Origin: a virus
Taxonomy: Duplodnaviria; Heunggongvirae; Uroviricota; Caudoviricetes
IMG/VR virus record: IMGVR_UViG_2579778842_000017
Span: 5,703-69,702 of that record
Reading direction: 5' to 3' (one strand)
Length of the DNA stretch: 64,000 nt
Numbering within the stretch: position 1 is the stretch's first letter; each line of letters begins with the position of its first letter. Made by a program: the position numbers and the translations under genes. Shown here piece after piece: positions 39,242 to 58,491 of the stretch. The notes under the pieces are model-generated. The model had not been told where the DNA came from, did not search any database, and saw nothing but the letters and a program-made list of their open reading frames with translations.

Positions 39242-39318
39242 TGGCGTGGCATGCAGGATTCGAACCTGCGACCAACCGCTTAGAAGGCGGTTGCTCTGTC
39301 CGACTGAGCTAATGCCAC
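39242..39318 (-). tRNA. tRNA-Arg (anticodon UCU)
   Basis: 77-nt cloverleaf folded by hand: 7-bp acceptor stem, T-loop TTCGAAT, anticodon loop CTTCTAA, 3' CCA encoded; differs from E. coli argU in the acceptor stem. Confidence 0.9.
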
Positions 39319-39640: not shown

Positions 39641-39655
39641 TTACCTGAAAGGTAA
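39641..39655. promoter_or_regulatory. operator-like palindrome TTACC-TGAAA-GGTAA (site 2 of 5)
   Basis: Exact match about 90 nt upstream of the 39746 ORF and portal; flanks resemble site 5. Confidence 0.4.
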
Positions 39656-57170: not shown

Positions 57171-57881
57171 TCAGAAGAACCCTGCCTTGTCGTTGATGTA
57201 CTCCGCGTGCGTCTGGATATCACGCAGGCATTTGCTCACACCGACGATGTAGCAGAACATGGTGGTCAGCTCCGCCGCCGCGCCAGATACGTCGTGCCCG
57301 TCGTCCTGCAACTGGTTCAGCAGATTCATCAGCAGTGAGTTCTCCGTCAGGCCGAGAACACCAGACGGCGAGTGAATCAGGCTGCGGTAGCCGGGCTTCA
57401 GTGGGGCACTGTAGGTTTTGTTCTCTATCTTCATTGCCTGTATTACTGCTGACGCCGTGGCGTTGGCTACCTGGTCGGCAACCATCTTTATGCGTTCTTC
57501 CTGCGGGAGCGAGTCTTTAATGTAACTTCCGGTGCGGCGGATCTGAGGAAGAACCTCACCTGTAACCCATTTACGAAAGCGGTAGGGGATAGTGCCTGGT
57601 GTCACCGCATCGCGGCAGCGGAGGATCAGTGTGTAGAGGCCTGACTCGGAGATGATGTTGAGCTCTTTTACTCGGCTATCAAAAATTGCACGATGTTCAT
57701 GCCCTATGTTGAACATAGACCTTTCATCATCATCCAGTTTTTCAAGTGATTGGGTGACGTTTTGGATACGCAGCGCACTACAAACGTCTTGGGCTACAAA
57801 CCATGGTTGGCCATCGATAATGATGGAACGGATAGGGTTAACAGATTCAAATTTGAAGATGGCAGTTTGAGCATTAGCCAT
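57171..57881 (-). CDS. Bro-N domain antirepressor-like protein
   Basis: Start refined to MANAQTAIFKF...; N-terminal IIIDGQPWFVAQDVCSALRI is a Bro-N signature; C-terminal domain paralogous to the 85-aa protein upstream. Confidence 0.65.
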   Translation of the reverse strand: MANAQTAIFKFESVNPIRSIIIDGQPWFVAQDVCSALRIQNVTQSLEKLDDDERSMFNIGHEHRAIFDSRVKELNIISESGLYTLILRCRDAVTPGTIPYRFRKWVTGEVLPQIRRTGSYIKDSLPQEERIKMVADQVANATASAVIQAMKIENKTYSAPLKPGYRSLIHSPSGVLGLTENSLLMNLLNQLQDDGHDVSGAAAELTTMFCYIVGVSKCLRDIQTHAEYINDKAGFF

Positions 57882-58036
57882 GGTGGTTATCTCCACTTAG
57901 TGATTTTAATCACCACCGCAACGCCAATTACTGGTGGTGAACTGGACAAGGTTGGCGTACCGGCCTAAGTGGTACCGGCGTCCTTTCGGACCCCTGCCCA
58001 GCCCACCATAATTCGGATATGGCTGTGCTTAACGCA

Positions 58037-58059
58037 TAAAAAAACCACGTCTGGCGTGG
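58037..58059 (-). terminator. terminator-like hairpin with U-run
   Basis: Minus strand: CCACGCCAGACGTGG followed by TTTTTTT. Confidence 0.4.
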
Positions 58060-58150
58060 TATGCGCCACTTAGTAACTCGGGACGCCAATCCCGGCACTG
58101 GATTTTTCCAGTGCCCGATTACTATGGCACAAGAGGAGTGCGATGTAAAT

Positions 58151-58165
58151 TTACCGCAAAGGTAA
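58151..58165. promoter_or_regulatory. operator-like palindrome TTACC-GCAAA-GGTAA (site 4 of 5)
   Basis: Nested inside inverted repeat GGAGTGC...GCACTCC (58135..58178); minus-strand context TTGCAA-18 nt-TATATT then TTACC. Confidence 0.4.
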
Positions 58166-58196
58166 ATATAAGCACTCCACTTGGTAATTGCAAACC

Positions 58197-58454
58197 TTAT
58201 CTGGTTTGTTTTCGTAATTGTTCGGCACAATAGTCGAGATGTGTTTGCAGATCCCGCATAGACATCTGTGAGCTGGTGACGTAGTTAATCAGTGCAGTCA
58301 GTTCGGCAAGTGGGCCATCGACATTAAATCCATCCTTATCGAGCTCCCGGAGTAATTTCATCAAGTGCGATCCCTCCACCAGTGATCTAACGCCTCCCGG
58401 CGTGTGAATCCTTTCGGTAAATCCGTCTTCCAGTGGATAGTGATACTGCTGCAT
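58197..58454 (-). CDS. small antirepressor-like protein (paralog of the Bro-N protein C-terminus)
   Basis: 85 aa from ATG after GGAGAA site (track ORF 58197..58472 starts at TTG); about 45% identity by eye to residues about 150-236 of the Bro-N protein. Confidence 0.5.
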   Translation of the reverse strand: MQQYHYPLEDGFTERIHTPGGVRSLVEGSHLMKLLRELDKDGFNVDGPLAELTALINYVTSSQMSMRDLQTHLDYCAEQLRKQTR

Positions 58455-58475: not shown

Positions 58476-58491
58476 CTGTATAAATATACAG
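58476..58491. promoter_or_regulatory. LexA (SOS) box
   Basis: CTGTATAAATATACAG, a near-consensus CTGT-N8-ACAG palindrome about 22 nt upstream of the 85-aa gene start. Confidence 0.7.

Follow-up and report, generated by a model that had tools for sequence, protein, structure and literature searches.

The window, the 64,000-nucleotide stretch of phage DNA analysed here, derives from an epsilon15/phiV10-like (Uetakevirus) prophage of Escherichia coli. On its minus strand, a gene for an 85-aa protein is followed by a hairpin-rich segment of 160 nt and, further downstream, by a Bro-N antirepressor gene. The RNAs, sites and genes of this region are as follows.

57171..57881, minus strand: Bro-N antirepressor gene, 236 aa (Pfam Bro-N, 4.7e-19; phrog_130 'anti-repressor Ant', 3.4e-55; RefSeq CDS in E. 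coli UMNK88)
57893-57900 (entry 57891..57900), minus strand: b2 site CUAAGUGG, overlapping the Shine-Dalgarno sequence GGAG at 57891-57894
57921..57928, minus strand: a2 site AUUGGCGU, whose start is 2 nt beyond the C4 match
57930..58013, minus strand: C4 antisense RNA (Rfam C4, RF01695; 66 bits, gathering score 45; full length, 1-87)
57952-57958, minus strand: a′ element of C4, ACGCCAA
57965-57972, minus strand: b′ element of C4, CCACUUAG, in the loop of hairpin 2
58038..58114, minus strand: IsrK-family small RNA, the a1b1 leader (Rfam isrK, RF01394; 66 bits, gathering score 50; full length, 1-77)
58038..58060, minus strand: Rho-independent terminator ACCACG-CCAGA-CGUGGU and U run (by scan, a stem of 6 pairs with 4 G-C and a 5-nt loop)
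58066..58073, minus strand: b1 site CUAAGUGG, perfectly complementary to the C4 loop and placed in a single-stranded linker, 5 nt short of the terminator stem
58079-58094 and 58095-58114, minus strand: hairpin 2 and hairpin 1 of the IsrK-like RNA, whose remaining parts are the linker carrying b1 and the terminator
58083..58090, minus strand: a1 site AUUGGCGU, complementary to a′ and identical to a2 over its 8 nt; forms part of the hairpin 2 loop
58197..58454, minus strand: 85-aa gene (ORF; phrog_450; RefSeq CDS WP_001188258.1 at the same place in E. coli UMNK88)
58476..58491, minus strand: LexA-box-like palindrome CTGTATAAATATACAG, an exact CTGT-N8-ACAG just upstream of the 85-aa gene and outside the element described here

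An IsrK-type RNA followed by a C4 RNA

The hairpin-rich segment represents a previously unannotated copy of IsrK (or c4-a1b1), a small RNA already known from phages, and lies directly upstream of a C4 antisense RNA; the pair is an ordinary member of a described system in which both RNAs jointly control translation of a prophage antirepressor. The isrK match had an E-value of 6.9e-12 over the whole window. The c4-a1b1 model (RF03163) overlapped it at 58075-58127 and scored 40.9 bits, below its gathering score of 46.7, which 4 of 15 related loci reached (CP-1639, VT2-Sakai, P1 and Gifsy-1). The P1 leader matched c4-a1b1 with 51 bits and isrK more weakly, with 35 bits, and by sequence Salmonella IsrK and the P1 c4 a1b1 leader are the same element. 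Neither the phiV10 record nor the RefSeq record of E. coli UMNK88, whose sequence agrees with our 331-nt query at every position, has an RNA gene annotated here.

The first-pass annotation had described the segment as hairpin-rich and as a candidate small RNA or attenuator. Its minus strand folded at −66.9 kcal/mol, compared with −41.5 ± 4.3 kcal/mol for shuffled sequences (z = −5.9), and because the fold beat all 200 shuffles, the structure exceeds chance. A second hairpin noted at that stage (GGCACTGGA/TCCAGTGCC, 58094-58102 and 58107-58115) is 100% complementary, and the terminator-like hairpin ACCACG-CCAGA-CGTGGT occupies 58060..58044 of the minus strand, ahead of a T run whose U7 is 58038-58044. 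The 77-nt RNA alone folded at −31.7 kcal/mol (z = −3.95). Compensatory changes, counted without the terminator because the MAFFT alignment is out of structural register there across loci, were present at 5 of the 7 pairs of hairpin 1 (12 loci). Over the two 5′ hairpins, 97.9% of cells were paired in 12 loci and 6 pairs were changed on both sides, with none of 500 shuffles as good and slid controls at 47.5% paired or less.

The terminator, predicted from sequence, lies inside the isrK match, and the homologous hairpin is annotated as a terminator in phiV10. A discrete minus-strand RNA ending at the U7 is the best reading, since the isrK score exceeds the gathering threshold, but its predicted length is 77 nt from the conserved promoter and not the ∼110 nt first suggested. 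The term small RNA fits this element, while attenuator fits loosely, in the sense that in Salmonella a short IsrK RNA has been detected experimentally, with a Rho-independent terminator at its end that lets part of the transcription continue into an antirepressor operon (PMC4825925).

The main actor of the locus, the C4 RNA, falls outside the 160 nt to which attention had been drawn. It starts 24 nt downstream of the IsrK-like RNA and is followed by the Bro-N gene. Its minimum free energy fold is the family structure (−43.6 kcal/mol, z = −5.0), 8 pairs of its helices show compensatory changes (13 loci), and the closing helix is conserved, with a 3′ tail ending ...CACCACCA. In P1 immI, C4 is matured from a longer precursor by RNase P. 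For this prophage, C4 would likewise be processed from RNA reading through the terminator, and the 5′ and 3′ ends of the IsrK-like RNA are those predicted above.

The product of the 85-aa gene is 43% identical over 74 aa to residues 155-228 of the Bro-N protein, its C-terminal domain (E = 4e-16). LexA would be expected to bind the palindrome at 58476..58491, which is conserved ∼375 nt upstream of the IsrK +1 in phiV10, phiv142-3, ZX5 and Tyrion. Overexpression of the ZX5 gene located at the same position as the Bro-N gene (ORF4) lowered the prophage titre from 10^9 to 10^6 PFU/mL (PMC9782041). Between C4 and the antirepressor ATG (48 nt) no icd-like ORF was found, and the frame opened by the conserved AUG (58009..58007), equivalent to orf45, stops after 14 codons at a UAG inside b′ (57967..57965). 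No match to isrJ was obtained at the gathering threshold anywhere in the window; isrJ is present in Gifsy-1 and SW-37.

Promoters and operator-like DNA upstream of the RNA

Upstream of the IsrK-like RNA we located two promoter-like sites, a palindrome that overlaps both of them, and repeats that enclose or accompany these elements.

58121..58149, minus strand: P_b, conserved promoter TTTACA-17-CATAGT with TG at −15/−14 (consensus scan; CTTGTGCCATAGT invariant in 8 loci)
58130..58183, no strand assigned: outer inverted repeat CAAGAGGAGTGC / GCACTCCACTTG, enclosing the palindrome and the P_a −10 box
58151..58165, no strand assigned: operator-like palindrome TTACC-N5-GGTAA, between the P_a −10 box and the P_b −35 box
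58165..58193, minus strand: P_a, promoter-like TTGCAA-17-TATATT (consensus scan, 9/12 matches)
58177..58185, no strand assigned: third CCACTTGGT copy, in the P_a spacer and the left arm of the outer repeat; C-A mismatch with b′

P_b predicts a +1 at ∼58114 and hence the 77-nt RNA. As consensus matches, its −10 box and those of the related loci end 6 nt before the start of the IsrK model, with the same geometry in all 14 related loci, and the loci with a sigma-70-like −10 box include the P1c4 promoter annotated in the P1 record. P_b is the counterpart of this P1c4 (former P51b), and P_a is possibly that of P2c4 (former P51a); the −10 boxes of the two tandem c4 promoters are 40 nt apart in P1 and 44 nt apart in the window. 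P_a is the promoter-like sequence that had first made a short transcript seem plausible. It is present (58193..58165), with a spacer of 17 nt and not 18, but it would give an RNA of ∼120 nt and is conserved in a subset of loci only, whereas TTTACA-N17-TGcCATAGT is kept in all relatives. Its −35 hexamer is confined to the E. coli Uetakevirus loci; TL-2011b and Klebsiella KPC3phi13.3 have lost it.

The nested inverted repeats of this region, GGAGTGC/GCACTCC around an inner TTACC-GCAAA-GGTAA, had been noted among the hairpins of the segment. Both were found, the former inside 12-nt arms (58130-58141 and 58172-58183, 92% complementary) and the latter at 58151-58165, but they lie upstream of the predicted +1, in promoter/operator DNA. 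TTACC-N5-GGTAA occurs at 8 sites in the 64-kb window (0.94 expected) and at 14 in phiV10 (0.63 expected), where it flanks the repressor gene and marks the start of almost every operon; its half-sites are invariant and its spacer is free among 8 relatives. It is a dispersed operator-like DNA motif and not an RNA hairpin, and a protein bound to it may control the two promoters. The outer repeat was present in 4 E. coli loci, was replaced by ATGGGT/ACCCAT in Klebsiella OXA245phi3.2, and was absent from TL-2011b, Tyrion and KPC3phi13.3 (3 of 8 relatives). It is therefore not essential to the RNA module, and since it also lacks a U tract, we rejected two readings of it, one as a hairpin conserved in the RNA and one as a terminator serving the upstream gene.

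Complementary sites and their co-variation across phages

The a′ and b′ elements of C4 are complementary both to a1 and b1 of the IsrK-like RNA and to a2 and b2 of the antirepressor leader. The calculated duplex energies were −11.9 kcal/mol for a′-a1, −12.6 for b′-b1, −10.3 for a′-a2 and −12.6 for b′-b2, and the GGAG that b2 overlaps stands 9 nt before the antirepressor ATG (57879-57881). Whole molecules gave RNAduplex energies of −50.9 kcal/mol for C4 with the IsrK-like RNA and −35.4 kcal/mol for C4 with the ant leader, which barely improves on shuffled targets (29 and 32 of 500 as good), in a test that ignores intramolecular structure; for this reason the exposed a′ and b′ elements were used instead.

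The repeated motif CCACTT(A/G)GT, three copies of which had been reported from the segment, indeed occurs exactly three times in the 64-kb window (57893, 58066 and 58177), although the copy at 57893 lies beyond the segment. By chance 0.59 copies were expected, and three were reached in 1 of 100 shuffles. The complement of the repeat, CTAAGTGG (57965-57972), sits in the C4 loop just downstream of the segment. The three copies are not equivalent sites: two are functional, as b1 and b2, and the third is without co-variation. At the position of this third CCACTTGGT copy, phiV10 and ZX5 keep CCAAGTGG/CCAAATGG despite a b specificity of CUAAAAGG, and because it does not track the b class in either phage, we rejected it as an additional C4 target ('b0').

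The same pair of isrK and C4 was found in 16 phage loci (the window, 13 related phage loci, P1 immI and the Gifsy-1 type locus), separated by gaps of 23-26 nt. Within every locus the three copies of each site co-vary, and a and b assort independently. There were 11 b classes. The a sites are given as three core classes (GGCGU, GGUCU and GACAG), their 'non-own' statistic being inflated, as flanking bases make identical cores look different. For b′-b1, the duplex energy was −10.9 kcal/mol with the own partner and −3.75 kcal/mol with foreign ones (permutation p ≤ 1e-5), and the own target was the best partner of b′ in 10 of the 11 classes. Family membership, geometry, the complementarities and their co-variation are established in this analysis.

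A proposed antirepressor switch and its alternatives

The layout of the window matches that of the immI region of phage P1 and of the isrK locus of Salmonella Gifsy-1. The c4 antisense RNA of phage P1/P7 immI was reportedly the subject of work by Citron and Schuster in 1990. In P1, c4 RNA represses Ant synthesis; icd is the direct target of translation control, with Rho-dependent polarity on ant. Our account of P1 draws in part on its GenBank record (NC_005856) and on PMC8546580. The record annotates a1, b1, c4, a2, b2 and two promoters with a C1 operator at a spacing nearly identical to that of the window, and the order is the same: tandem promoters, a1, b1, a terminator-like hairpin, C4, a2, b2 at the ribosome-binding site, and the antirepressor. 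In both, a′ follows hairpin 2 of C4 and b′ lies in the loop of that hairpin. The starts of a2 and b2 are 28 nt apart in the window and 29 nt apart in P1, the ATG follows the end of b2 after 12 and 11 nt, respectively, and a2 starts 2 nt after the C4 match in the window and 4 nt after the annotated c4 in P1. The promoters are overlapped by a palindromic candidate protein site in the window and by the C1 operator Oc4 in P1, the putative operator being TTACC-N5-GGTAA in the former and a C1 site in the latter.

There are also differences from P1. Whereas P1 acts via icd, the window has no icd-like ORF, so that b2 covers the Shine-Dalgarno sequence of the antirepressor itself. The Bro-N antirepressor is unrelated to P1 Ant1 (KilAC/ANT domain), and its a and b sites have other specificities. 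The module resides in a short-tailed integrating Uetakevirus and not in a plasmid prophage, and, unlike in P1, a LexA-box gene lies immediately upstream. The P1 record calls a1 and b1 'putative' targets only, which counts against an established decoy role in P1.

Gifsy-1 and the window share an RNA of 77 nt, made up of two 5′ hairpins, a linker and an intrinsic terminator, and their a1 (AUUGGCGU) and a′ (ACGCCAA) are identical. In Gifsy-1, as in the window, a C4-like RNA (STnc1160/orf45 region; C4, 69 bits) lies downstream, at 25 nt, and is followed by an antirepressor-like gene, whose expression needs terminator read-through. There, IsrK provided in trans raised anrP translation 139-fold, and the double mutants G28A/C162U and G31A/C159U restored the single conformer of the wild type (structure A) and lowered the elevated basal anrP translation of the single mutants (PMC4825925). 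We mapped G28 and G31 to a1, and C159 and C162 to a′; both the a1:a′ pairing and IsrK trans-activation are thus demonstrated in Gifsy-1, and binding of IsrK to Hfq is likewise a Gifsy-1 result (PMC4825925). The Salmonella authors attribute activation to refolding of the long transcript and not to titration of a processed C4-like RNA, and IsrK-mediated growth arrest became stronger there when orf45 (STnc1160) was constitutively expressed as well (PMC4825925); both points count against the decoy reading proposed below. In contrast to the window, Gifsy-1 has an orf45 of 45 codons (14 in the equivalent frame here), an isrJ, an ORF6N cargo without detectable homology to Bro-N and, as upstream neighbour, antQ in place of the LexA-box antirepressor-like gene; the b specificity differs, and the antQ toxicity cascade has no visible counterpart in the window. 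Among the regulated antirepressors of the window, Gifsy-1, P1 and VT2-Sakai no homology was detected.

We propose that the same events take place in this prophage. Minus-strand transcription would begin at the conserved promoter, with a +1 near 58114, and further transcripts could come from the second promoter 44 nt upstream and possibly by read-through from the LexA-box gene. Most would end at the U7, yielding the 77-nt RNA with a1 in a hairpin loop and b1 in a single-stranded linker. Read-through transcripts would contain C4 (57930-58013), which after processing would expose a′ and b′ and pair with a2 and b2 in the Bro-N antirepressor mRNA leader. Given the overlap of b2 with the Shine-Dalgarno sequence, this would block translation and protect lysogeny; with no small upstream ORF of the icd or orf45 kind, direct occlusion of the antirepressor's ribosome-binding site would have to be the mechanism. 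The short a1b1 RNA, since it carries the same two target sequences, would compete for C4 as an anti-antisense decoy, and upon its accumulation C4 would be titrated and the antirepressor translated. Release of antirepressor translation by such titration is the most likely role of the short terminated RNA. Overall, we put at about 85% the probability that the segment comprises the promoter/operator region and the a1b1 leader of a P1-type antisense-RNA immunity module (immI-like) working through this series of events.

The a1b1 leader could instead act mainly in cis, with a1 and b1 pairing with a′ and b′ of the nascent C4 in read-through RNA ('structure A') and setting the folding and processing of the precursor and the translatability of what follows, the short RNA being a by-product or a competitor of the cis helix. 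We regard this as possible, with the odds somewhat against it. Almost all of the wild-type Gifsy-1 long RNA adopts a conformer in which the middle of IsrK pairs with the orf45/C4 region, and the a1 mutations G28A and G31A raise basal translation in cis (PMC4825925). In folds of longer window transcripts, b1 is buried in a helix with upstream GCCAUAGUAAU, so that exposure of the site depends on the transcript made. However, C4 keeps its family structure in the 289-nt window fold, unpaired with a1b1, and the short RNA of Gifsy-1 strongly trans-activates, an effect that is lost when it carries G28A or G31A (PMC4825925). Since trans-activation by the short RNA comes from the same study, cis and trans roles are not exclusive.

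In satellite phage P4 immunity, a processed antisense CI RNA is flanked by two target copies (seqA/seqC) within one transcript. Its outcome is premature transcription termination of the replication operon, whereas occlusion of the antirepressor ribosome-binding site is proposed for the window. Attenuation of the P4 type would mean that C4, bound to nascent a1/b1, promotes termination (at the U7 or Rho-dependent) and autoregulates c4-ant transcription. The end of b1 lies 5 nt from the terminator stem, the 19-nt stretch around b1 and the terminator mimics b2 with the ribosome-binding site, and the IsrK authors, who call P4 SeqA a structural homolog of IsrK, cite the SeqA/CI homology, in which CI pairing leads to premature termination, and raise the possibility for STnc1160 (PMC4825925). 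We nevertheless judge attenuation unlikely. The terminator is of the canonical intrinsic type, which works unaided, and the minimum free energy folds held no obvious antiterminator alternative. Moreover, a termination factor that reduces read-through should have eased the IsrK-mediated growth arrest in Salmonella, yet constitutive expression of orf45 (STnc1160) alongside IsrK aggravated it (PMC4825925).

It is very improbable that the segment is a mere 3′-UTR and terminator of the LexA-box gene joined to the antirepressor promoter region: the terminator does lie ∼140 nt downstream of the stop codon of the 85-aa gene, and GenBank/RefSeq records mark a terminator only or nothing, but two Rfam families match at full length above their thresholds, hairpin 1 co-varies, a1 and b1 track C4 across 11 specificity classes, and lambdoid, P1-like and Gifsy phages have the cassette but no LexA-box gene with it. 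Equally improbable is that the conserved nucleotides encode a small 'Ash'/orf45-like protein in place of RNAs: an 'Ash family protein' is annotated over the cassette in ZX5 and Hafnia yong2, whose long ORFs match Pfam Phage_ASH, and translation of orf45 contributes to Gifsy-1 anrP expression (PMC4825925), but ORF length varies among close relatives (14 codons here, 37 in ZX5), the Phage_ASH match coordinates are those of isrK plus C4, terminator included, with RNA helices that co-vary, and the only long ORF of the window here (100 aa, TTG start) has no Pfam match, on which ground the coding reading was rejected.

Within the preferred reading, an antisense-RNA immunity module with a short decoy RNA, an SOS link can be imagined. 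The IsrK/C4 switch of Uetakevirus prophages may have been rewired as an SOS integrator, in which transcripts from the LexA-box promoter, P_a and P_b differ in b1 exposure. LexA, together with a global repressor bound at TTACC-N5-GGTAA, would gate the mix of these promoters, which would set the decoy-to-C4 ratio, and C4 would target the antirepressor ribosome-binding site itself, without a relay through icd or orf45. This extension, which we consider doubtful, builds on the longer-transcript folds, where b1 is buried against the P_b −10 sequence; if true, the promoter mix would also time the appearance of Bro-N as a second antirepressor beside the small one under LexA control.

The 331-nt region gave near-identical matches in 456 of the 5,426 complete E. 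coli genomes searched, and a search for distant matches hit 244 phage records. Recognition of the cassette, which some records translate as an 'Ash family' protein, thus sets many annotations right. The value of the finding lies mainly in annotation, for the element is already known and current understanding is nowhere overturned. For the phages that carry it, the a and b sites constitute a combinatorial specificity code (3 × 11 classes, 16 loci), by which unrelated temperate phages should fall into heteroimmunity groups.

An IsrK-family RNA and its C4 partner

Scanning of the whole window with Rfam models returned two minus-strand matches, isrK (RF01394) at 58038-58114 (66 bits; gathering score, 50) and C4 antisense RNA (RF01695) at 57930-58013 (66 bits; gathering score, 45). 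A permissive scan added c4-a1b1 (RF03163) at 58075-58127, which overlaps isrK at 40.9 bits, under its threshold of 46.7. Judged by sequence, the 3′ half of the hairpin-rich segment at 58037-58196 is an IsrK-family small RNA, and the partner that gives it its meaning is C4, just beyond the segment. The feature is real and a member of the known families isrK/c4-a1b1 and C4, not new biology. Folded alone, both the 77-nt RNA (-31.7 kcal/mol, z = -3.95) and C4 (-43.6 kcal/mol, z = -5.0) take their family structures. The intergenic space, 57897-58196, is flanked by two minus-strand genes.

Parts of the locus (a1/b1, upstream target sites; a′/b′, C4 elements; a2/b2, target sites in the antirepressor leader)
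58476-58491: perfect CTGT-N8-ACAG palindrome matching the LexA-box consensus, preceding the 85-aa gene
58197-58454, minus: 85-aa gene, upstream flank of the intergenic space
58193..58165, minus: P_a, promoter-like site of the first-pass annotation, TTGCAA-17-TATATT
58165..58151: palindrome TTACC-N5-GGTAA
58149..58121, minus: P_b, conserved promoter, TTTACA-17-CATAGT, TG at -15/-14
about 58114, minus: predicted +1 of the small RNA
58114..58095, minus: hairpin 1 of the IsrK-type RNA
58090..58083, minus: a1, AUUGGCGU, the loop of hairpin 2
58073..58066, minus: b1, CUAAGUGG, within the linker
58060..58038, minus: terminator with U7
between terminator and C4: 24-nt spacer
57972..57965, minus: b′, CCACUUAG, in the loop of C4 hairpin 2
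57958..57952, minus: a′, ACGCCAA, single strand 3′ of C4 hairpin 2
57928..57921, minus: a2, AUUGGCGU
57900..57893, minus: b2, CUAAGUGG, overlapping the Shine-Dalgarno GGAG
57881, minus: antirepressor ATG
57171-57881, minus: Bro-N gene, 236 aa, downstream flank

The first-pass annotation had described this segment as a small RNA or attenuator candidate. The arms of its outer inverted repeat (58130-58141 and 58172-58183), its inner palindrome TTACC-GCAAA-GGTAA (58151-58165), its second hairpin (perfect, 9 bp, 58094-58115) and its terminator-like hairpin (58060..58044, followed by a U run) were all found, and structure prediction, which it had proposed as a check, gave the 160-nt minus strand a much more stable fold than shuffled versions of it (z = -5.9). 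The promoter-like site TTGCAA-TATATT is present with a spacer of 17 nt, not 18. A short terminated RNA is upheld as the best reading, its predicted length being 77 nt from the conserved P_b; from P_a it would be about 120 nt. As RNA structure the nested repeats do not stand, since the palindrome is operator-like DNA and the outer repeat is missing in three of eight relatives.

The locus carries no annotated RNA gene in the public UMNK88 and phiV10 records: the former (L016, NC_017641.1 3007957-3011287) lists only the two flanking CDSs, and the latter (L001) has a "terminator" and a "similar to SF0880" misc_feature across the isrK/C4 nucleotides.

Co-variation of target sites and C4 elements

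Over a 331-nt query of the region, E. coli UMNK88 is 100% identical to the window, phage HEMP4 98.6% and phiV10 about 91%, which places the window in Uetakevirus. The region is present in 244 phage records (distant search) and in 456 of 5,426 complete E. coli genomes (near-identity search). At each of the 13 phage loci sampled, isrK and C4 occur together with 23-26 nt between them. Compensatory changes affect five of the seven pairs of IsrK hairpin 1, where 97.9% of cells are paired, and eight pairs of C4.

The a sites fall into three classes (GGCGU, GGUCU, GACAG) and the b sites into eleven, and the two sets of classes assort independently: the window shares b and not a with phiv142-3, and a and not b with phiV10. 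At each locus a1 equals a2 in core sequence and is the complement of a′, and b′ pairs with both b1 and b2, which differ by 1-2 bases in a few loci. Own b′-b1 pairings averaged -10.9 vs -3.75 kcal/mol for foreign ones (permutation p <= 1e-5), with the own target pairing best in 10 of the 11 classes; for b′-b2 the values were -11.3 vs -6.1 kcal/mol (p <= 1e-5). In the window, local duplex energies were -11.9 (a′-a1), -12.6 (b′-b1), -10.3 (a′-a2) and -12.6 kcal/mol (b′-b2). Such co-change of classes is the mark that selection for pairing between RNAs leaves in the sequence, at the upstream and the downstream target sets alike.

CCACTTRGT, reported as three copies, does occur three times (0.59 expected by chance). 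The copy at 58177-58185, CCACTTGGT in the P_a spacer, was rejected as a C4 target because it does not follow the b class: phiV10 and ZX5 belong to b class CUAAAAGG and yet keep CCAAGTGG or CCAAATGG at this place.

Rival readings are that a1b1 has a role in cis folding only, or that the locus works by P4-like attenuation. Two further readings, a plain UTR with a terminator and a protein-coding "Ash" gene, are effectively excluded, given the covariance-model matches and the way the sites co-vary. Phage_ASH (PF10554, Pfam) matches in annotated long ORFs (L008 988-1671; L011 831-1973; L009 1337-1624; L003 1401-1514; own coordinates of each locus) coincide exactly with isrK and C4 nucleotides; in Hafnia yong2 the match spans residues 68-161 (nt 1189-1471) and in 118970_sal3 residues 115-209 (nt 1173-1458). 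Window frames over the cassette are closed and gave no Phage_ASH match. Much of the "Ash protein family" may consist of translations of the IsrK/C4 RNA cassette.

Comparison with P1 and Gifsy-1, and a proposed mechanism

The P1 record annotates, in order, the Oc4 operator, P2c4, P1c4, a1, b1, c4, a2, b2, icd and ant. The window has the same order from its two predicted promoters to b2, with 28 nt from a2 to b2 (29 in P1), 12 nt from b2 to the ATG (11 in P1) and two -10 boxes 44 nt apart (40 in P1). The P1 leader scores 51 bits against c4-a1b1 and 35 bits against isrK. At the Gifsy-1 type locus a c4-a1b1 match of 48.1 bits, above threshold, overlaps isrK (79 bits); C4 (69 bits) follows 25 nt 3′, and then come an antirepressor-like gene and isrJ. 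On these matches IsrK is the leader, a1b1, in a module of the c4 type, with which the published IsrK mutations are consistent. Gifsy-1 numbering from the isrK model start agrees with every published base identity and puts G28 and G31 in a1 and C159 and C162 in a′, two elements identical in sequence to those of the window. The double mutants G28A/C162U and G31A/C159U regained the single wild-type RNA conformer (structure A) and brought down the basal anrP translation, which is raised in the single mutants, and IsrK in trans raised anrP translation 139-fold (PMC4825925).

By analogy, the module would work like P1 immI and the Gifsy-1 isrK locus. An intrinsic terminator, predicted from sequence, lies between a1b1 and C4, so C4 and ant would be made only by read-through. 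In P1, trans-acting c4 RNA represses Ant synthesis (PMC8546580); by this homology, processed C4 probably blocks antirepressor translation here and stabilises lysogeny, and the geometry is such that b′ pairing with b2 would occlude the Shine-Dalgarno sequence. The short terminated RNA would probably sequester C4 or compete for it and activate translation, as homology with Gifsy-1 and a1/b1 co-variation suggest. Unlike P1 and Gifsy-1, the window has no icd/orf45-like relay: the frame from the conserved AUG ends after 14 codons, with UAG within b′. Since no relay ORF is present, control would have to act straight on the antirepressor ribosome-binding site.

In folds of transcripts starting upstream of P_b, b1 is buried in a helix (58062-58078 with 58114-58133) whose other strand is GUGCCAUAGUAAU, the P_b -10 region, and b1 is free in the 77-nt RNA, so that promoter choice could set decoy activity. 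The leader segment GGUGGUGA (57908-57919), just 3′ of a2, can pair with either of two partners: UCACCACC (57933-57945), which forms the 3′ side of the closing helix of C4, leaving a2 in the loop, or AUAACCACC (57882-57890) beside the start codon, enclosing b2 and the Shine-Dalgarno sequence. The two helices are mutually exclusive and resemble the Gifsy-1 A/B conformers.

Promoters, a dispersed palindrome and exchangeable cargo

Every locus conserves a promoter with a -10 box ending 6 nt upstream of the IsrK +1; it is P_b in the window and corresponds to P1c4 (former P51b) of the P1 record. The P_a -35 hexamer is conserved only in E. coli Uetakeviruses, and P_a may correspond to the second promoter of P1. 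In TL-2011b (L004), about 0.9 kb of other sequence (346-1260) separates the 85-aa gene from the cassette; similarity to the window ends within the P_a region, which marks the left arm of the outer repeat as a recombination joint.

The inner palindrome probably acts at the DNA level, as an operator would, and not as a hairpin in RNA. Eight relatives keep both half-sites unchanged, with a free spacer between them. TTACC-N5-GGTAA occurs at eight sites in the window vs 0.94 expected (1771, 36478, 36496, 39641, 57083, 58151, 58531 and, weak, 15272) and at 14 in phiV10 (L015) vs 0.63 expected (87, 105, 3252, 20497, 20877, 24692, 26870, 31953, 32015, 32727, 32775, 33112, 35070, 35132). The phiV10 sites mark nearly all operon starts, follow terminators and flank the two-HTH repressor gene p40 on either side. 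The motif looks like a putative genome-wide dispersed operator for one regulator, recalling P1, where C1 binds 22 dispersed operators, one at c4 (PMC8546580; P1 record). The literature searched gave no description of it. The site at 39641 is 320 nt from a tRNA-Arg (anticodon UCU; 39242-39318, minus) that the prophage carries between its terminase and portal regions.

No intrinsic terminator was found between the 85-aa gene and the cassette, and SOS-induced read-through from this LexA-box gene could plausibly feed the switch. The LexA box is kept in phiV10, phiv142-3, ZX5 and Tyrion, and a strict pattern did not find it in Klebsiella relatives. Because the 85-aa product shares 43% identity with the C-terminal domain (residues 155-228) of the Bro-N antirepressor, the prophage may have two tandem antirepressor-type proteins, one LexA-controlled and one C4-controlled.

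The absence of a relay ORF, the LexA-box neighbour and a different putative operator make this a lineage-specific layout. The cargo varies as well: Bro-N here, AntA in phiv142-3, KilAC/ANT in P1, and ORF6N with or without P22_AR_C in Gifsy-1 and Stx phages, with no detectable homology among the Bro-N, AntA, ORF6N and KilAC/ANT proteins. Since its cargo is non-homologous and interchangeable, the RNA cassette is a portable switch.
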